Shown piece by piece: positions 951-52,100 of a stretch of 64,000 nucleotides of DNA. Each line of letters begins with the position of its first letter. Positions within the stretch are counted from its first letter, which is position 1. This DNA is from Candidatus Shapirobacteria bacterium (GTDB lineage: Bacteria > Patescibacteriota > Microgenomatia > UBA12405): assembly GCA_030698565.1 (NCBI GenBank), contig JAUYJS010000008.1, positions 15,098 to 79,097 on the forward strand. The letters run 5' to 3'. The notes beneath the pieces were generated by a model that saw nothing but the letters and a program-made list of their open reading frames with translations, ran no database searches and had not been told where the DNA came from. Both the position numbers and the translations under genes were made by a program.

Positions 951-1076
951 CTCGGTTCTGGCCACGACCTATCTTCAAGATCCCTTGCGGAAAGACTATT
1001 GTCAGTGCTAAAACGTTTCACTTCTCTGTTCGGAATGGGAAGAGGTGGTTCCATCTCGCTCCAGTGACCAGAACTG
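951..1076 (-). rRNA. rrf: 5S ribosomal RNA
   Basis: The reverse complement contains the hallmark CCCATTCCGAACAGAGAAGTGAAAC motif. Helix I ends pair (ttctggtca / tggccagaa). Length is about 125 nt. Confidence 0.85.
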
Positions 1077-1209
1077 AAAAACTAAAACAAAGTAATTATA
1101 AACTAATTTCTTGGCCTCTAAATAGAGTTGCCTAATCTGGCTCCTAAACCACAATAGAATTGTAGTCTAAGAGCCATACTATATAAAAAAGATTTCTTCG
1201 ATCTTTCCA

Positions 1210-4180
<2,971 letters not shown>

Positions 4181-4359
4181 TAGTTTTGGCAACTCAATTC
4201 AGTTGCCAAGAAATTGAAAGTCTTATAATTACTTTTTTCGATTCAATAAATTGTTAATGTGCAGTATTCAGTTTAAGGAAATAAATTTCTTTATTTCCTT
4301 ATTTCTAAATATCTCTTAAATGGATTTATCCACCGAAGTTCTGCTTTGCAGAACGTAGG

Positions 4360-4433
4360 TGGACCCAAGGAGAGTCGAACTCCTGATCTCCTCGTTGCAA
4401 ACGAGGCGCTTTAACCAACTGAGCTATGGGCCC
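4360..4433 (-). tRNA. tRNA-Ala (anticodon TGC)
   Basis: Reverse complement is gggcccatagctcagttggttaaagcgcctcgtttgcaacgaggagatcaggagttcgactctccttgggtcca. It folds as a cloverleaf with a 7-bp acceptor stem, anticodon loop tt-TGC-aa and TTCGA T-loop. CCA is not encoded. Confidence 0.9.
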
Positions 4434-4660
4434 AGAGACCATCTTCTACTTTATTAAAAGTGCCAAAAAACAAAAAAACCTGCCAGTCCGGCAGGCTGGC
4501 CGAAAGCTCTTGCTTTCGGCTACTTCAAATCCTTTTAAAACAATTTAATCGGCCCAGTCTAAACCTAAATAAGTTGTTTTTTTGTTATATTTAATAGCTT
4601 TCAGCATTCGCAAGTGTTCATATTCTACAAGATACCCGAGCCTACGTCAATTAGATAAAA

Positions 4661-5302
4661 TCACCAGTTTTTACCCATTTTTGCTTTAGCAAATTCTAGT
4701 CCAATTGGAATTATTGAAATTGCAATAATAACAACTACTACATAATGAAAATTAGCCTTAACAATAGGAAAATTTCCAAAATAAAATCCTCCAAATACAA
4801 ACAGAGCTACCCACACTAAACCACCAATAAAATTAAACCAAATAAATCTCCAATAATTCATTTTACCAACTCCCGCTACAAATGGAGCAAAAGTCCTCAC
4901 TATTGGTACAAACCTAGCCAAAATAATTGCCTTACCCCCATGTTTTTCGTAAAAATTAGTTGCTTTATCCAAATATTCTTTTTTCAAGAATCTGCTATTC
5001 ATGCTAAAAGCCCGAGGACCAATAAAATGACCAATCCAATAATTTATTGTATCACCCAAAAAAGCCGCCAAAAACAACAATAAAAATAAAATATAAACAT
5101 TAAAAGAACCAATTGCCGCCAAAGCCCCAGCCGCGAACAAAAGTGAATCACCTGGTAAAAATGGGGTAATTACAAAACCGGTTTCCATAAAAACCACCCC
5201 AAACAAAATTGCATAACTAAGCATTCCGTAATTTTGAATTACCAAAACCAAATTTTTATCTATATGCAAAAACAAATCAACCAAGTATTTTAAAATTGTC
5301 AT
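4661..5302 (-). CDS. DedA/SNARE-associated family membrane protein
   Basis: 213-aa ORF with typical DedA motifs (FMETGFVITPFLPGDSLLFAAGALAA ... ARFVPIVRTFAPFVAGVGKM). Confidence 0.75.
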   Translation of the reverse strand: MTILKYLVDLFLHIDKNLVLVIQNYGMLSYAILFGVVFMETGFVITPFLPGDSLLFAAGALAAIGSFNVYILFLLLFLAAFLGDTINYWIGHFIGPRAFSMNSRFLKKEYLDKATNFYEKHGGKAIILARFVPIVRTFAPFVAGVGKMNYWRFIWFNFIGGLVWVALFVFGGFYFGNFPIVKANFHYVVVVIIAISIIPIGLEFAKAKMGKNW

Positions 5303-5441
5303 AAAGCATTTTAGTCCCTCTGGCTAATCTTTTCCAGACCAAATTTTACTGTCCGCCAAATATTGTTAGCGCTTCCAAACAAAATCAACACCACTGCTCC
5401 CATTAATCCTACAATTCTAAAGTAGTTCCATTTTTTCATAG

Positions 5442-5515
5442 TGGGCAATAGTAGACTCGAACTACTGACCCCCGTCTTATCAGGACGGTGCTCTAACCAA
5501 CTGAGCTAATTGCCC
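5442..5515 (-). tRNA. tRNA-Ile (anticodon GAT)
   Basis: Reverse complement is gggcaattagctcagttggttagagcaccgtcctgataagacgggggtcagtagttcgagtctactattgcccac. Anticodon loop is ct-GAT-aa with a TTCGAGT T-loop. Confidence 0.9.
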
Positions 5516-5644
5516 TAAATTATTTTTAAAGTGTGCTCTAATTTACCATGCCGAAGTTCTGCTTTACAGAACGAAGGCTGGCCAACTGACCTGCCCGCCA
5601 GACTGCGAAGCTGTCGGTGGGGCTAATTGCCCTTAATTTCAAAA

Positions 5645-6595
5645 TTAGTATATCACAGCTTTTTCCACTAAAATCTCCACAACTGCTTTAGCTGTATTTA
5701 TTTTAGTTGCTTTTTCAAAACCCTGAAATTGGCACTGTCTGTTTACTTCTAAAACATAGCTATTATCAAACTCATCTTTCATTATATCCACCCCACAATA
5801 ATCCAACCCACACACCTGTGCCACTTTTTCCGCCAATTCGCTATCTTCTTTGGAAATTTCCCAGCTTTCTACCTCTCCGCCCAAAGAAAAATTACTCCTA
5901 AATTCATCGCCAACTGCCGATCGTTTCATCGCTCCCAATGTTTTTCCACCCAGAACAATAACTCTCATATCCCATCTGGTCGACAAGCATTTCTGCCACA
6001 GATACATTCCCAAGCTCTTTTCATCAATTTTCTTAAGCACCGTTTTTAATTCTTTTTCGTTATTAATTTTTCGAACACTTTTTCCCTGAAACCCTCTTTC
6101 ATGTTTACAAATAATTGGATATTCCCAACCAAAAAAAGTATTTCTCCCATTTTCAAGGGGAGATGTCCGTAGGACAGAGGGGTTTAGAACTTGTTCTCTT
6201 GTATAAAAGATTTTGGTCGGTACCACCGAAATATCATTCACCACAAATACCCCATGTTGAGAAATTTTTCCCATTCTCGGCCAACTCAAATAACTCACTT
6301 CATTAGCACAAAAAATTTTATCTTTCAAAAGTTTTAGCAGTAAATTTCTACCTTCAATATATTTACCCGATTCAGTTCCAGCCACTCGGCACCACACCGC
6401 CAAAGTATTTTCTTCATTAATTTCTTTACCACATGCCAAAACTTTAGTTTTTCCATTTTCCACTTCAAAACTTAATTCTTTATACAACACTCGACTAACC
6501 TCCACTCCCAATTTTCCTGCCTCTTCTACTAATCTATTTACCTCATAGCTACTTTGCTGTGCTGACATGGTCAACACTAAAATTTTTTTATTCAT
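5645..6595 (-). CDS. RimK-family ATP-grasp amino-acid ligase (alpha-L-glutamate-ligase-like)
   Basis: 316 aa. The C-terminal half matches the RimK ATP-grasp core (RVIVLGGKTLGAMKRSAVGDEFRSNFSLGGEVE..VCGLDYCGVDIM...VLEVN). It contains one in-frame repeat-derived insert, LNPSVLRTSPLENGRNT. Confidence 0.7.
   Translation of the reverse strand: MNKKILVLTMSAQQSSYEVNRLVEEAGKLGVEVSRVLYKELSFEVENGKTKVLACGKEINEENTLAVWCRVAGTESGKYIEGRNLLLKLLKDKIFCANEVSYLSWPRMGKISQHGVFVVNDISVVPTKIFYTREQVLNPSVLRTSPLENGRNTFFGWEYPIICKHERGFQGKSVRKINNEKELKTVLKKIDEKSLGMYLWQKCLSTRWDMRVIVLGGKTLGAMKRSAVGDEFRSNFSLGGEVESWEISKEDSELAEKVAQVCGLDYCGVDIMKDEFDNSYVLEVNRQCQFQGFEKATKINTAKAVVEILVEKAVIY
6139..6188. repeat. Palindromic repeat copy A (diverged), in frame inside the CDS 5645-6595
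   Basis: tatttctcccattttcaaggggagatgtccgtaggacagaggggttta. Same architecture as copies B-D: a ctcccc/ggggag hairpin plus a gagggg tail. Confidence 0.8.
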
Positions 6596-6609
6596 ATGTT
6601 TATATGTAC

Positions 6610-6629
6610 GGGCGATTCATGAATCGCCC
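6610..6629. terminator. Intergenic GC palindrome gggcgattcatgaatcgccc (family copy 1)
   Basis: Perfect 9-bp arms (gggcgattc/gaatcgccc) with a 2-nt loop, lying between two minus-strand ATP-grasp genes. Confidence 0.5.
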
Positions 6630-6636
6630 CTACGAA

Positions 6637-7650
6637 TTATTTTTTCAATCCAACTAAAAATTTAACTATTTCCGCAGGTACATCAATTCCCGTTGCCTTC
6701 ATAAAACCTTTAAACTGAGGTCCTTTATTAACTTCCCAAATTACAGGTTTATTTATATCATAATTTCTAAAAGCCACATCGACTCCGGCCACCCACAACC
6801 CACACACCTCCGCCGCTTTAACCGCTAAATCTTCAATTTCTTTGGGTAATTTAGCTACTTCCACCCTTCCTCCCGCACTATAATTATTTAAAAAATGATT
6901 CTTAGGAGCCGAACGTTTAATCACCCCAAGTACCTTTTTTCCCAAAACCAACACCCGGTAGTCCCCATCATTTTCAATATATTCTTGCAACATATATCTT
7001 CGGCCTTCTTCTGTTTCTGACTTTCTCAAATCCATCACCAATTTTTCTAATTCAGCCAAATTATTAGCCTTAAAAACCCTCGTTCCCCTATCCCCACCAC
7101 TACCCTTGAGAATTACTGGAAAAGTAAAAAAATATTTCTCCCCTTTATCAAGGGGAGATGTCGCAGCAGCGACAGAGGGGTTTTTCTGTTCTGTCTCTTT
7201 CATAAATTCATACAAATACCACAAACTACCATAAACAGTTTTAGGCACATCAATTCCCGCTCGCTTCATCACCAACATTTGGTAAGCCTTACACGTATCC
7301 GAAGGCCTACCTTTCAAAACCAACGGATCCACCACAACTGGCGTTTTATATTTCTCCCCTTTATCAAGGGGAGATGTCGCAGCAGCGACAGAGGGGTTTT
7401 TCACCGAATCTAAAATCAAATTTACTTCTTCCCAGTGTTTTCCTGTTGTTCTAAAAAACAAAACATCATAATCTTTAATATTTTTTTTTCTTCTTAATTT
7501 TACTTCCCCAAAATCAGTATCAAAACAAACTTCATTATAAGACACCAAATCCAAAACCACCCCCAGTTTCTTCGCCGCTCTTTTTATCATCATCAAATGC
7601 TGACTAACTTTTCCTCCAAAAAATAGGGCAATTCTTGTTTTTTTATTCAT
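6637..7650 (-). CDS. RimK-family ATP-grasp ligase carrying two identical in-frame repeat insertions
   Basis: 337 aa. The RimK-like C-terminus is YRVLVLGKKVLGVIKRSAPKNHFLNNYSAGGRVE...GVDVAF...IWEVNKGPQFKGF. The peptide KNPSVAAATSPLDKGEKY occurs twice and is encoded by two identical ~54-nt DNA repeats. Confidence 0.7.
   Translation of the reverse strand: MNKKTRIALFFGGKVSQHLMMIKRAAKKLGVVLDLVSYNEVCFDTDFGEVKLRRKKNIKDYDVLFFRTTGKHWEEVNLILDSVKNPSVAAATSPLDKGEKYKTPVVVDPLVLKGRPSDTCKAYQMLVMKRAGIDVPKTVYGSLWYLYEFMKETEQKNPSVAAATSPLDKGEKYFFTFPVILKGSGGDRGTRVFKANNLAELEKLVMDLRKSETEEGRRYMLQEYIENDGDYRVLVLGKKVLGVIKRSAPKNHFLNNYSAGGRVEVAKLPKEIEDLAVKAAEVCGLWVAGVDVAFRNYDINKPVIWEVNKGPQFKGFMKATGIDVPAEIVKFLVGLKK
7133..7186. 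repeat. Palindromic repeat copy B, in frame inside the CDS 6637-7650
   Basis: tatttctcccctttatcaaggggagatgtcgcagcagcgacagaggggttttt, identical to copy C. Confidence 0.85.
7347..7402. repeat. Palindromic repeat copy C, in frame inside the CDS 6637-7650
   Basis: Identical to copy B. On the coding strand it encodes KNPSVAAATSPLDKGEKY. Confidence 0.85.
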
Positions 7651-7665
7651 ATTTTTATTTATAAT

Positions 7666-7716
7666 TATTTCTCCCCTTTTTAAGGGGAGATACGGCGAAT
7701 GCCGAGAGGGGTTTAG
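7666..7716. repeat. Palindromic repeat copy D, intergenic, overlapping the stop codon of 7713-9038
   Basis: attatttctccccttttttaaggggagatacggcgaatgccgagaggggtttagc. It may double as a terminator hairpin. Confidence 0.75.
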
Positions 7717-9038
7717 CTTTTTGCCGAAATTAAAAACCCTCCCAAATCTTTTCTACCCAATAAAAATTTGGTTCTCAATTTATGTCGATCAGCCACATTG
7801 ACTGCGGTCACAATTTTCCGACCGTTTAACCAAAAAGTCAAACCCACCACTGGCCGATCATTATTTTTACCTAAAGCTGATTTATAATGCCGATAATACA
7901 ATATTTTATTTTCATCCAAAAGACCTAGTTCTTGAGCTAAAACTCTATCTATTGAACTCCTATAAGCTCCGGTATCGATCTTAGCCGTCACCTCTTTGAA
8001 ATTTTTCTTGCCTTTTCCAGTTTTAATTTTAATATTTTCCAAAGGACCTACTAACTTAACCTTTTCTTTTTCCTCAACTTTATCAGAGAAACTTTCACCA
8101 AATAAATATTTAGCCAAAGTAATGGCGTGTTCTGTACTTCTAACTTCTATTTCTTCCAGTTTATCCATCCTCGCTTTTAACCCCGCCTTATTGCATATTT
8201 GAATCGATAAACCCGGCCTAGCATTAACTTCCAAAACCATTGGCCCTTTTTCTTTATCCAACACCACATCCACACCCAAAAACCCCAAACCCGGAATAGC
8301 CTTTTGACAATTTACTGCTGTTTCCAAAATCTCTTTCCAAAAAGGAATTTTTATACCATTAACTTTTCTCATTTTCTTTTTGCCATAATCATAAATTCGT
8401 CTTATCGGTTCTCCCTTACCTTCAATTCCAAAAGTGGTAATTCCCGAAGCCAGATCAATCCCCAAACCCACCGCCCCCTGTTGTAAATTCGCCTTACCAC
8501 CACTTTTTTCTGTTGGAATTCTAAACATGGCCATTACCGGCACTTTGTTGTAGACAATTACCCGAATATCCGGCGTCCCGACCTTAGTAATCGCCAAAAA
8601 CATCGGATGAATTCTAATTCTCTCTTCCACCAAAACCGGATCCGATGCTCCGTGCATACTATAACGACCTGCCAAAACATCTTGACAATGAAGTTTAATA
8701 TCTTGAGTAGTTATAATCTGGCCATTCATTTTCTGCCATTCACCAGCCCATTTGGCTCTGCGTCGAATAATTATAATTCCCTCACCACCGTATCCTGATT
8801 CCGGTTTGATCACAAAATTTCCTTCCAAATCTTCCCAGCGAAAGTTATCTAATTCTTCAATCGTCTTAAATCTTTTGATTAGCAAAGGCACACCAATATT
8901 TGCTTTGGCCAATATCTTCTTAGTTCTATATTTACTATCCGCTACCATCCGATCAGCCGTTGTATTTTTTCTCAAATAAACCTTATTCCTTTCGTTTTTA
9001 GTTAAAAACTGACGATAAGGTTTCAAAAAGGCAAACAT
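7713..9038 (-). CDS. ATP-grasp domain protein fused to a C-terminal retropepsin-like (Zn_protease / RimK-associated aspartic peptidase) domain
   Basis: 441 aa. The N-terminal ATP-grasp signature is FVIKPESGYGGEGIIII ... MVLEVNARPGLS. The C-terminal IDTGAYRSSID carries the D-T-G-A retropepsin catalytic motif. Confidence 0.6.
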   Translation of the reverse strand: MFAFLKPYRQFLTKNERNKVYLRKNTTADRMVADSKYRTKKILAKANIGVPLLIKRFKTIEELDNFRWEDLEGNFVIKPESGYGGEGIIIIRRRAKWAGEWQKMNGQIITTQDIKLHCQDVLAGRYSMHGASDPVLVEERIRIHPMFLAITKVGTPDIRVIVYNKVPVMAMFRIPTEKSGGKANLQQGAVGLGIDLASGITTFGIEGKGEPIRRIYDYGKKKMRKVNGIKIPFWKEILETAVNCQKAIPGLGFLGVDVVLDKEKGPMVLEVNARPGLSIQICNKAGLKARMDKLEEIEVRSTEHAITLAKYLFGESFSDKVEEKEKVKLVGPLENIKIKTGKGKKNFKEVTAKIDTGAYRSSIDRVLAQELGLLDENKILYYRHYKSALGKNNDRPVVGLTFWLNGRKIVTAVNVADRHKLRTKFLLGRKDLGGFLISAKS

Positions 9039-19005: not shown

Positions 19006-19016
19006 TACCAAAACGT

Positions 19017-19038
19017 AGGGGCGAATCACGATTCGCCC
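19017..19038. terminator. Bidirectional terminator-like palindrome ggggcgaatcacgattcgccc (family copy 3) between convergent genes
   Basis: 9-bp arms gggcgaatc/gattcgccc followed by aatttt. Located between the stop of 17320-19005 (+) and the stop of ftsH (-). Confidence 0.55.
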
Positions 19039-24288: not shown

Positions 24289-24596
24289 AAAATTATTTTA
24301 AAGCAAAAGACAAGTACAAACTAGGTACGGTAATAATTCGGTTATTATGCGGTTAATTCCCAAGCTAATTTCGTCCCAACCCGGACTAGGTTTAAGTAGC
24401 GACGTGAAAAATGTAATGACATAAGATATCGAAAGGTTATAAAAAACGTACATATAAAATAAATTTCTTGGCTTTAAAATCTATTGTCACAAGGTTAATT
24501 GTGTTTTTAAAAAACGTCATAACTCCCAAATTAAAATATGAAGAATGTTCTGATATTAAACAGGGAACTGGATCAAAAAAACATATAACTCCGTAG

Positions 24597-24616
24597 GGGC
24601 GATTCATGAATCGCCC
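24597..24616. terminator. Intergenic GC palindrome gggcgattcatgaatcgccc (family copy 2)
   Basis: Identical core to copy 1. A second palindrome ggacaggtcgcgacctgtcc at 24652-24671 overlaps the stop of the flippase gene. Confidence 0.5.
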
Positions 24617-48943: not shown

Positions 48944-49156
48944 ATGCAAACAGTAACTTTTAGTATTCCCGACATGCACTGTCCTTCTTGTCCTAAATTA
49001 ATCAAATTGACTTTACTAGACATCGATGGGGTTAATGAAGTTGAAGCTTCGTTAGACACAAAAAAAGTAGTTGTTAATTTTGATTCTCAAAAAACTTCAG
49101 TTGTTTCACTTATTAATTCAATCAAAGAAACTGGATATACCGCCAGTCTTAAATAA
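48944..49156 (+). CDS. copZ: Copper chaperone CopZ (HMA domain)
   Basis: 70 aa with the MHCPSC metal-binding motif. Near-duplicate of the first HMA domain of the downstream ATPase. Confidence 0.8.
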
Positions 49157-49160
49157 ATCT

Positions 49161-52100
49161 ATGACTCAAGATATAAAATCAAAGCAGGTGATTTTATCTG
49201 TTCCCGATATGCACTGTCCTTCTTGTCCTAAATTAATTACTCTCGGCCTCAAGGATCAATCCGGAGTTATTTCTGTTAATGCTTCTTTGGAAAATAAACA
49301 AGTCGTTGTTAATTTTGATCCGGAAAAAATTAAAATCAACGATTTATTAGCCAACATAAAAGAATCTGGATATACAGCCATATCCAAAGAGAACGGAGAT
49401 ATGCCTGTTATCGAAAATGCACCACCTGAATTACCTACAAAAACAATTACTCCAACTACTGTTTCTGGTACCCAGGTTGCCCTTTTAAATTTAACTGGTA
49501 TGCACTGTTCTTCATGTGCTGGTTTAATTGAAAGGTCTCTTAAAAAAATACCCGGCGTGACTGAAGTCAATGTTAATTTTGCCTCGGAAAAAGCCCGGAT
49601 TGTTTACAATTCCAACACAACAAAGGTTGAAGATTTGATTAAAGGTGTCGAATCAGCTGGTTACCACGCCTCACAGCCTGGTGAAAAAGAAGAAAACCAG
49701 AAAGAAAAACGAGCCCACGAAATTAGTTATTGGTCCAAAAAATTTCTCCTAGGTCTGGTTTTGAGTTTACCCATGATTCTTTTCATGGTTTACGATTTCA
49801 CTAATGCCATTCCATTTAAGACCAGCATTATGCCTTACGCCGGAATTCTCTCACTGCTTTTATCCACCCCGGTTCTTTTTTATGTCGGATCAAACTTTTT
49901 CGCTGGTTTTTGGTCAGCCCTAAAAATGCGAACTTTTTCTATGGATTCGTTAATTGCTATCGGTACCGGTACTGCTTTCACCTACAGTCTTTACGAATTC
50001 ATTAAATATGCTTCTGAAACAGGTTCCATTATTGGTTTAAATGGCACAAAGGTTCCAGATCTTTATTTTGAAGTAGCGGCATTTTTAATCACCTTTGTTT
50101 CTTTAGGTAAATATCTTGAAGCCAAAGCCAAAGGCAAAACTTCCGAAGCGATTGAAAAACTCACAGGGTTAGCTCCTAAAACCGCCCGAGTTATGCGTCA
50201 AGGTCAACCAATCGATATCCCAGTAGAACAGGTCGTTGTGGGGGATATCATTGTTGTTCGTCCTGGTGAAAGAATTCCAGTTGATGGTGAGGTAGTTTCT
50301 GGTTATTCAGCTGTCGATGAATCGATCCTTACGGGTGAATCTTTACCTGTTGAAAAACAAATTGGGTCTAAAGTTTATACAGCTTCTATCAATAAAACCG
50401 GTTCCTTCGAATTTAAAACTACAAAAATTGGTGCCGACACAGCCTTAAGTCAAATCGTAAAATTAATTGAAGATGCCCAAGGGTCTAAGGCGCCAATCCA
50501 AGCTGTTGCCGACAAAATTTCTTCAATTTTCGTTCCAGTGGTTATTGGAATTGCCATTCTTACCTTCATAGTTTGGTATTTTTTACTTAGTGCCACTTTA
50601 ACCTTTTCTCTTTTAGCTTTTGTTGCTGTTATCGTTATTGCCTGTCCTTGCGCCTTAGGCTTAGCTACTCCGACTTCAATCATGGTCGGAACTGGCAAAG
50701 GGGCCGAATATGGTGTTTTGATAAAAGGTGGTGAACCTTTAGAAATGGCTGAAAAAATCAAGGCCATCGTCTTTGACAAAACTGGTACCCTAACTAAGGG
50801 TAAACCAGAAGTAACCGACTTTATAAATTACCTGCCAGGTGATCAAACTATTCTTTCAGTTTTGTATTCAATTGAACAAAAAAGCGAGCATCCCTTGGCC
50901 GAAGCCATTGTTCGTTATGGTCAAAATACTGGTGCTGTTAATTATGCCATTGAAGACTTTCAAGCCATCCCAGGTCATGGTGTCAAAGCCACCGTTAATG
51001 GGCAAGTCTATTTTGTAGGTAATCGTAAACTTTTGGAAATCAACCAAATTCCTCTAACTTCTGGTTATGACATGGAAAGATTAGAAAACGATGGTAAAAC
51101 CGCCATGGTCATAGCTAATCAAGAAAAAGTTTTAGGTTTAATTGCTGTAGCCGATCAAGTTAAAGAATCATCTGCTTCAGTTGTCTCCAAGCTAACAAAA
51201 ATGGGTATAACTGTTTATATGATTACTGGCGACAACCGTCGTACAGCTGATGCAATCGCTAAACAGGTCGGTATTACTAATGTATTAGCTGAAGTTTTAC
51301 CTCAAAATAAAGCTGAGGAAGTTAAAAAGCTTCAAGATTCTGGTATTAAAGTTGCCATGGTTGGTGATGGTATTAATGACGCTCCAGCTCTAACTCAAGC
51401 TGATTTAGGTATAGCCATGGCCTCTGGTGCCGATATTGCCATGGAATCAGGAAATATTGTAATAATGACCAACGACTTAAACGGCGTTTTAACTGCCATA
51501 AGTCTATCGCGGGAAACTGTTGGTAAAATTCGTCAAAACATGTTTTTTGCCTTATTTTATAACGTCTTAGGTATCCCGATTGCAGCCCGCGCCTTAGCTT
51601 TTATGGGTCTTATTCTTAAGCCTGAGCTAGCTGGCTTGGCTATGGCATTGTCTTCAGTTTCAGTTGTGACCAATTCTTTAACCCTAAAATTATTTAAGCC
51701 AGGTAAATTCAATTGGATTTCTCGTTTAGCCCCTTTTGTTATGGTGGGTCTATTTTTAGGTGTATTTATCGAATTTGCTCGATTTTCTTCCCAAATGGGA
51801 GGATTAGAGTCTGGGGCCAAATCTGGGCCGGCTGCCTATATTCAAAAAGCTCCAGTTATTAAAACAGTCATAAATAGGCTTTTGGTCGACAATGCTTCCA
51901 AGATTGGTTTTGCGGAAAACCTCCCTAAGTTATTTATAGGTGTCAACAAATTACCTGAATCAATAATGCTAGCCGAGGGCTCCTCCGATCTTTCAGAACA
52001 GGGAAGTGTCATTTTAGGTGCCAAAGAAGCTGCCATGATGACAGAAGAAGGTTTAATTAGTGGTATCAATTCTGAGATCCCTGACTTTTTCGGGCTACCC

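Follow-up and report, generated by a model that had tools for sequence, protein, structure and literature searches.

The window analysed here is a 64-kb stretch of a Candidatus Shapirobacteria metagenome-assembled genome (MAG; contig JAUYJS010000008.1), in which two neighbouring minus-strand genes encode paralogous RimK-like ATP-grasp ligases and share an operon with genes for an ATPgrasp_ST/Zn-protease protein and a 7TM-transglutaminase-type protein. An element of ~50 nt occurs four times at positions 6139-7716, with three copies (A, B and C) in frame within the ATP-grasp genes and one (D) intergenic (Table 1). An earlier, sequence-only reading of this DNA had proposed four such copies within 1.6 kb, and all four were found where it had placed them. 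Copies B and C, which it had called identical, match at 100% across 55 nt and lie 216 nt apart, and the in-frame translation that it had described was confirmed, both open reading frames (ORFs; 5645-6595 and 6637-7650) being intact despite the inserts and reading LNPSVLRTSPLENGRNT once and KNPSVAAATSPLDKGEKY twice. The overlap that it had seen between the intergenic copy and a stop codon is also present, as the final T of copy D (7713) falls in the TAA of ORF 7713-9038. All four copies share one orientation, and no further copies were found in the rest of the window.

Table 1. Positions of the element copies, their parts and adjoining features in the window
Feature	Position	Strand	Details
RimK-like ATP-grasp ligase, paralog 1	5645-6595	-	316 amino acids; PF08443, 2e-28; host of copy A
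Copy A (diverged)	6139-6188	+ (G-rich strand)	In frame in ORF 5645-6595, reads LNPSVLRTSPLENGRNT
Copy A, pyrimidine (Y) arm	6143-6148		TCTCCC
Copy A, purine (R) arm	6157-6163		GGGGAGA
Copy A, mini-hairpin	6165-6175		GTCC-GTA-GGAC
Copy A, mirror third arm	6176-6184		AGAGGGGTT
REP-like palindrome, GTAG head	6605-6634		CGTAGGGGCGATTCATGAATCGCCC; between the two ATP-grasp genes
RimK-like ATP-grasp ligase, paralog 2	6637-7650	-	337 amino acids; host of copies B and C; Q8P53_02865 of the Candidatus Shapirobacteria MAG
Copy B	7132-7186	+	In frame in ORF 6637-7650, residues 156-173, reads KNPSVAAATSPLDKGEKY
Copy B, Y arm	7137-7145		TCTCCCCTT; followed by loop TATC
Copy B, R arm	7150-7158		AAGGGGAGA
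Copy B, hairpin	7160-7173		GTCGC-AGCA-GCGAC
Copy B, third arm	7174-7182		AGAGGGGTT
Copy C	7348-7402	+	In frame in ORF 6637-7650, residues 84-101, reads KNPSVAAATSPLDKGEKY
Copy C, Y arm	7353-7361
Copy C, R arm	7366-7374
Copy C, hairpin	7376-7389
Copy C, third arm	7390-7398
Copy D (intergenic)	7666-7716	+	Between the start of ORF 6637-7650 and the stop (7713-7715) of ORF 7713-9038
Copy D, Y arm	7670-7678		TCTCCCCTT
Copy D, R arm	7682-7690		AAGGGGAGA
Copy D, hairpin	7693-7704		CGGC-GAAT-GCCG
Copy D, third arm	7705-7713		AGAGGGGTT

The plus-strand layout of the element is TT-TCTCCCCTT-loop-AAGGGGAGA-T-hairpin-AGAGGGGTT-T, and as an oligonucleotide the G-strand is the 49-nt 5'-TTTCTCCCCTTTATCAAGGGGAGATGTCGCAGCAGCGACAGAGGGGTTT-3'. 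The blocks TCTCCCCTT and AAGGGGAGA pair as a Watson-Crick hairpin (in copy A one C of the pyrimidine arm is changed to A, costing one Watson-Crick pair), and the third block, AGAGGGGTT, mirrors the purine block AAGGGGAGA rather than complementing it, placing G.G, A.A or T.A at every position when set antiparallel to it. Because the third arm obeys this rule throughout, the arrangement is read as the signature of a predicted class II intrastrand purine-motif (reverse-Hoogsteen) triplex, with a hairpin replacing the 3-nt second loop. The alternative hairpins proposed in the sequence-only reading did not hold, since GAGGGG is the mirror of GGGGAG and not the complement of CTCCCC, and only a 4-bp CCCC/GGGG pairing exists beyond. 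Its variable segment of 15-18 nt is indeed variable, but is itself a hairpin of 4-6 bp whose arms change in a compensatory manner between copies (GTCGC/GCGAC, GTCC/GGAC and CGGC/GCCG). Matches to the core pattern numbered six in the window against 0.01 expected, and a structure-only scan that asked for a pyrimidine arm, its complement and a mirror arm, and nothing else, returned exactly four such motifs in the 64 kb, these being copies A-D, with none in 50 shuffles. RNA folding of copy B gave z-scores of -5.5 for the minus strand and -4.1 for the plus strand, using programs that model Watson-Crick pairs only and not the triplex.

The same element is present in many bacterial phyla. A scan of 596 Gb of genomes, one per species, with the pattern CCCCTCT-N8-18-TCTCCCCTT-N3-8-GGGAGAAA matched at least 120 loci, against an estimated ~0.07 expected by chance; the counts of loci and elements given below rest on the 120 listed loci (910 kb), with or without the window. 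Among the matches listed are Bacteroidota, including the cultured isolates Salinimicrobium, Labilibaculum, Marinifilum, Ancylomarina and Sungkyunkwania, as well as Clostridia, Gammaproteobacteria, Margulisbacteria, Cloacimonadota, Chlorobiales, Kapaibacteria, Rhizobiaceae and a cyanobacterium; the candidate phyla radiation (CPR) is represented by Shapirobacteria, Woesebacteria, Peribacteria, Parcubacteria, Falkowbacteria, Gracilibacteria and Absconditabacterales. Several of these genomes are multi-copy, the cyanobacterium carrying more than 15 copies, and about four fifths of the copies among the matches listed are intergenic. Those inside genes include copies in MnmA of two Falkowbacteria, in UvrD/AddA-like helicase and chorismate-binding enzyme genes of Peribacteria, in TsaD of a gammaproteobacterial MAG and in an Eco57I-like methylase of a Syntrophaceae MAG. 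The three arms are nearly invariant across the listed loci and the intervening hairpin varies freely with compensatory changes; several lineages hold the unit either in inverted pairs or as part of a larger repeat of their own. A canonical element lies about 150-165 nt upstream of the 16S rRNA gene in Salinimicrobium and a Flavobacteriaceae MAG. A metagenome scan for recent bursts, made with the exact core of copies B and C, gave one unrelated intergenic match and is uninformative on copy number in the source genome. Carriage by phages or plasmids was considered and dropped, as searches of 2.9 million viral contigs and 72,556 plasmids found no match to the consensus.

Two further genomic settings were seen among these loci. 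Triplex-type elements flank the rRNA operon on both sides in Flavobacteriaceae/Salinimicrobium (locus L039 at 1893-1935, 7552 and 7838; also L036, L066 and L093), with two GGGAGGGGA variants after the 5S gene in L039. The cyanobacterial MAG CAVPZC01 (L004, L017, L029, L030 and others) holds the element within a ~200-nt unit resembling a miniature inverted-repeat transposable element (MITE), which is present in more than 15 near-identical copies and, besides its terminal inverted repeats GTTCGGGATAAG...CTTATCCCGAAC, contains another triplex-type variant in inverted orientation.

A perfect mirror third arm is present in 99 of the 182 distinct elements in the listed loci, which were gathered with a pattern that specified all three arms. 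The listed loci and the window were also searched for a purine/pyrimidine hairpin followed by a second hairpin, with no condition on what comes after. This search yielded 73 distinct variants with a duplex arm other than GGGGAGA, and 23 of them carry a perfect mirror third arm; 1000 permutations of the tails gave 2.9 on average and never more than 8. With up to one mismatch allowed the number rises to 32 of 73, compared with a permuted mean of 12.8 and a maximum of 21. The variants that keep the mirror include asymmetric arms (AAAGGAAG > GATGGATT; AAGGGAGGA > AGGTGGGTT; AGGGAAAG > GATAGGGT and GAAAGGGT; GGGAGGGGA > GGGGAGGG; AAAGGGGAA > AAGGGGATT). The three arms covary, and as no copying process yields a mirror arm, that is, one reversed but not complementary, selection on the fold is the simplest explanation.

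The G-rich DNA strand, rather than RNA, is favoured as the folding molecule because of the third-arm T opposite an A-T pair, the GNA triloops and the lack of orientation bias. The base adjoining the third arm, which was outside the search pattern, stands opposite a conserved A-T pair, and in 101 of 109 distinct elements it is a T when read on the G strand; T.A-T fits the purine motif, whereas the complementary A is barred from the pyrimidine motif. Third-arm bases opposite A-T pairs are A in 194 cases and T in 125, and only 15 of the 99 perfect elements also obey the pyrimidine-motif rule. Closure by C-G was seen in 57 of 67 distinct mini-hairpins, 40 of which have triloops, with GNA on the G strand in 28 of the 40; the d(C-GNA-G) mini-hairpin is known for its unusual stability in DNA. 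Across 125 copies there is no preferred orientation with respect to adjoining genes (16 versus 12 for copies between tandem genes; 7 versus 12 for those inside ORFs), and the intergenic settings (16 convergent, 6 divergent, 28 tandem) follow the pattern usual for DNA repeats of the repetitive extragenic palindrome (REP) type. Purine-motif triplexes have been reported not to form in RNA (PMC4666352).

The sites of the in-gene copies were compared across orthologs, as the sequence-only reading had proposed, and insert-free proteins were found for both ligases. Orthologs of paralog 2 range from 300 to 398 amino acids, those free of inserts measuring 300-304 compared with 337 in the window, and the shortest (P0112, P0091, P0071 and P0109) are empty at the sites of copies B and C; most orthologs of paralog 1 have no insert at site A, triplex-type peptides occurring there in about 20 of 120. 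Sites B and C and a third loop are hypervariable across the paralog 2 orthologs, some of which have no insert. Where the triplex element occupies these loops it is read as NPS...SPL.KGE or, in another frame, as NPLSLRDISLEKGD, the latter confirmed on the DNA in L125. Other orthologs carry a REP-like palindrome (GGGCGGAC-ACAA-GGGTCCGCCC-CTAC) read as EGRTQGSAPT and confirmed in L124, or an unrelated inverted repeat of 75-110 nt, so that the same three protein loops take three unrelated palindromic repeat families. The insertion sites are hotspots, and the insert-free orthologs, the hotspot sites, the use of two reading frames and the presence of the element in other host genes indicate that the in-gene copies are insertions and not an ancient feature of the proteins.

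Two Logan assemblies of a close relative (L121 and L122), in which the flanking coding DNA is about 98% identical to the window, showed that the insertions are polymorphic. In L121 the element is present at site C but its hairpin is swapped to GTCCC-TTC-GGGAC, a different palindromic insert takes the place of copy B, and the site of the window's REP-like palindrome (6605-6634) holds a triplex-type variant (TCCTCC/GGAGGA/AGGTGG) instead. These differences at sites B and C and at the REP site show that element content turns over much faster than the surrounding genes. In copy D one triple has changed on all three arms between window and relative (C.G-C to T.A-T), the arms reading CCCCTCT/TCTCCCC/GGGGAGA in the window and TCCCTCT/TCTCCCT/AGGGAGA in the relative. 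Recent conversion or re-insertion best accounts for the identity of copies B and C, and the recent mobility or gene conversion put forward in the sequence-only reading agrees with the replaced or converted element content of this near-identical relative.

Several other repeats and genes were observed around the ATP-grasp genes. The REP-like GTAG-head family (CGTAGGGGCGAtTCAtGAaTCGCCC) is intergenic in the window at 6605-6634, 19014-19038 and 24592-24616, and units related to it are translated in frame in ATP-grasp loops of L124 (about 1673-1702 and 1786-1812). L124 also holds a ~60-nt intergenic repeat (AATTAACTTTTTTA.CGTCTGTGAATGTGTT.CCACGTTCAACGATCG) on both sides of its ATP-grasp gene (1360-1420 and 2548-2610). 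In L121, six tandem T4SS_pilin paralogs (5290-7624) lie directly upstream of the 7TM_transglut/ATP-grasp operon.

The two ligases of the window are 32% identical, with copies A and B at homologous positions. An AlphaFold2 model of paralog 2 (mean predicted local distance difference test score, pLDDT, of 85; 57-sequence alignment) places copy C between helix 73-84 and strand 105-107, with pLDDT falling from 70 to 52, and copy B between helix 143-156 and strand 179-183, at a pLDDT of about 45. Both inserts are thereby modelled as disordered loops between conserved secondary-structure elements, in line with the earlier placement of the repeats between conserved blocks of the fold. All in-gene copies examined are multiples of 3 nt and stop-free, whichever frame is read, and a predicted tryptic peptide from the inserts is, for example, NPSVAAATSPLDK. 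As the G/C-rich arms are without stop codons in most frames, survival inside a gene would be easy.

The four copies are thus considered, with a probability of roughly 70%, to be members of a widespread family of small non-autonomous chromosomal DNA repeats defined by a single-strand triplex fold. The pyrimidine arm TCTCCCCTT would pair with the purine arm AAGGGGAGA, a C-G-closed mini-hairpin would form the connection, and the third arm AGAGGGGTT would lie antiparallel on the purine arm via G.G-C, A.A-T and T.A-T triples. Such a fold may arise on transiently single-stranded DNA and stall synthesis, and recombination, gene conversion or template switching between copies at the stalled forks would then spread and homogenise the copies, probably with no linked transposase involved. 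Copies borne in genes would survive only where they keep the frame, are stop-free and fall in tolerant surface loops, and would simply be translated as 17-18 additional residues.

A number of points weigh against this reading. The fold of this element is predicted, and for E. coli BoxC no triplex was seen in vivo (PMC4666352). The proposed mode of spread is purely inferred: neither target-site duplication nor terminal inverted repeat was found for the single unit in the four-copy alignment or the comparison with L121, no enzyme was found, and no linked gene family recurred in more than 6 loci in an all-against-all BLASTP of 980 open frames from the 120 loci. A pyrimidine-motif triplex of RNA or DNA on the C-rich strand, with CCCCTCT parallel to GGGGAGA, would accommodate the core seven triples (CCCCTCT/TCTCCCC/GGGGAGA) just as well, and the mRNA of the window carries the C-rich strand. 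The GC skew identifies the plus strand as lagging-strand sequence, and in the window copies the G-rich arm belongs to the strand that serves as template both for transcription of the genes and for leading-strand synthesis, which is not the strand most exposed in single-stranded form; in-place folding in the window is therefore not obviously favoured. An argument from the replication strand was dropped, as four clustered copies cannot carry an orientation statistic. The clustering of the four copies in 1.6 kb could reflect a local process rather than genome-wide mobility, and only the variant elements are free of the bias that the all-three-arm pattern brings to the listed loci.

The element could instead act as a structured RNA, the C-rich strand in mRNA sense folding into two hairpins, perhaps with a C+.G-C/U.A-U triple helix, and affecting translation, mRNA stability or termination. 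In its favour are good RNA folds on both strands (z -4 to -5.5), covariation of the hairpin arms, a fit of the seven core triples to the pyrimidine motif, a type of triplex possible in RNA (PMC4666352), and the sense orientation of all four window copies in their C-rich form. However, this reading is unlikely: the element has no Rfam match, gene orientation is unbiased in the 125 copies, a base allowed only in the purine motif is found in 101 of 109 elements and in many variants, C+ triples require acidic pH, and the hairpin loops are triloops and not UNCG or GNRA tetraloops on the C strand. Copies also lie between convergent genes, in genes on either strand and upstream of rRNA operons. Narrower RNA-level or coding roles were rejected as well, an intrinsic terminator because no U tract directly follows the hairpin, a Shine-Dalgarno role of copy D because it lies about 20 nt from the ATG, and an intein or intron because the element is too short; a CRISPR repeat, a riboswitch and a ribozyme were likewise considered and rejected.

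A true transposable element of the MITE type or of the Rickettsia palindromic element (RPE) type, moved in trans by a transposase and using the ATP-grasp loops as ordinary insertion sites, would account for the in-frame ORF insertions, which recall those of RPEs, for the many copies per genome, for the inverted pairs that Clostridia, some Bacteroidota and a cyanobacterium carry, with 30-100 nt between the two copies, and for the location of the cyanobacterial pair within a ~200-nt unit having its own terminal inverted repeats. It is judged quite unlikely, as the single unit is only ~50 nt long and has neither terminal inverted repeats nor target-site duplication, no transposase or other gene family recurs near the 120 listed loci, the viral contigs and plasmids searched are without it, and binding of duplex DNA by a transposase would leave the mirror symmetry of the third arm unexplained. 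The two identical copies 216 nt apart in a MAG raise the prospect of an assembly artefact, and ~50-nt hairpin-rich inserts match in size the elements skipped untranslated by translational bypassing (byp elements; T4 gene 60). Both are very improbable, since two independent Logan assemblies from different runs hold copies C and D at the same sites, which speaks against the artefact that the sequence-only reading had itself raised, and since bypassed elements need be neither multiples of 3 nt nor stop-free, as all in-gene copies examined are. An ancient functional peptide loop of ATP-grasp proteins, with the DNA similarity a by-product of peptide conservation, would fit the recurrence of NPS...SPL.KGE-like peptides, which many orthologs carry in the same two or three loops and which the two paralogs, only 32% identical, share at homologous positions; it is barely credible, as many orthologs are empty at these sites, others carry REP-like units or the 75-110-nt inverted repeat there, the reading frame of the element differs, the model shows the inserts as disordered and the same DNA is intergenic in many phyla. 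The insert-free orthologs and the intergenic copies in other phyla already refute it.

Elsewhere in the window, the minus strand at 956-5640 carries 5S, 23S and tRNA-Ala genes, then a gene for a VTT/DedA protein (4661-5302) and tRNA-Ile (5441-5515); a 16S gene is absent from the window, and 16 nt of the tRNA-Ile 5' end and leader are found again at 5624-5640. At 48953-49592, three tandem repeats of about 235-290 nt encode repeated modules resembling heavy-metal-binding domains at a gene start.

The question of intrastrand DNA triplex formation in cells has stood open since the description of BoxC/PIT, and the present repeats bring to it natural variation across phyla that keeps three arms matched by purine-motif rules; without selection on the fold such matching would be difficult to account for, and it provides a simple oligonucleotide for testing. 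A bolder proposal is a pan-bacterial class of elements, each a single-stranded DNA purine-motif triplex capped by a GNA mini-hairpin, whose arms are held covarying by selection, which are copied by a trans-acting process and which colonise protein loops. This proposal is tentative and on balance doubtful, but if it is correct, comparative genomics would, through the three-way covariation, have supplied evidence that such triplexes arise in living cells and are of consequence there. Several structured-repeat families are tolerated inside enzyme genes by CPR genomes, as by Rickettsia, and those who annotate CPR proteins or predict their structures should be prepared for loops derived from repeats; the orthologs also provide a natural set of filled and empty sites for studying the movement of such repeats.

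RPEs, as Ogata et al. are said to have described them in 2000, are reportedly plain palindromes of about 100-150 bp confined to Rickettsia and relatives. The sequence-only reading had seen the hallmark of RPEs here, and the functional analogy stands: a structure-forming repeat, with recent turnover, lies in frame in protein genes, leaves the ORF intact and adds a peptide to surface loops between conserved blocks. Identity with RPEs does not, the present element being ~50 nt long, with a mirror arm, mostly intergenic and found in many phyla, a distinction drawn from the description of RPEs and not from a comparison with their consensus. REP sequences and the mosaic elements built on them (BIME) are likewise short dispersed hairpin repeats, mostly intergenic, seldom between divergent genes and without target duplication, but the element described here has no GTAG/GTGG head and its conserved arms do not form a simple palindrome. 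A genuine REP-like GTAG-head family coexists in the genome and has colonised the same protein loops in orthologs; no gene for RAYT, the transposase that accompanies REP elements, was seen in the 64-kb window, which is too small to judge the whole genome. No Rfam family reached its gathering score in gathering and permissive scans of the window and nine loci. The Whalefall-1 RNA motif (RF01762) shares a UCUCUCC/GGAGAGA hairpin, a second hairpin and a G-rich tail, GGUGAGG, which mirrors its purine arm at 6 of 7 positions under the purine-motif rule, but the match (14 bits, E 2.6) is far under the gathering score and on the opposite strand, and is a lead only.

A search of the literature collection used here found no paper on a hairpin-bearing triplex variant or on in-frame palindromic repeats in CPR, consistent with the earlier claim that such repeats had not been described there. 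The closest described kind is the BoxC/PIT/TMECO repeat of E. coli and other Proteobacteria, PIT standing for potential intrastrand triplex (Holder et al. 2015, PMC4666352; earlier work of Hoyne and Maher, Hoyne et al. 2000), with the consensus CCCTCNCCC-N3-6-GGGNGAGGG-N3-GGGNGAGGG. TMECO is present in 3610 copies in 262 proteobacterial genomes, and in MG1655 is always intergenic and often arranged as inverted pairs of two subtypes; a BoxC single strand forms the triplex in vitro, and BoxC/PIT/TMECO has no promoter or terminator activity and is linked to local sequence variability (PMC4666352). The published triplex search (ITxF) allowed loops of 1-6 nt (PMC4666352) and would miss the present element because its second connector is a hairpin. 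In both, the pyrimidine arm, the purine arm complementary to it and a G-rich mirror arm (class II), with T opposite A-T, follow one another on a single strand; the stems are G/C-rich, the repeats are multi-copy, dispersed, chromosomal and without a linked gene, and they often form inverted pairs of two subtypes (for example in L123) and are associated with local sequence turnover. The clustering of the window's four copies in one orientation departs from this dispersed pattern. The arms also differ, being TCTCCCCTT/AAGGGGAGA/AGAGGGGTT and 7-9 nt long here as against CCCTCNCCC/GGGNGAGGG/GGGNGAGGG, and the 3-nt second loop of TMECO is replaced by a covarying mini-hairpin of 10-20 nt (3-7 bp stem), which exceeds the short-loop limit of 1-6 nt. 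TMECO is a repeat of Proteobacteria, whereas the element described here is found in many phyla and in frame in coding sequences; the two are of the same kind, but are not the same family.

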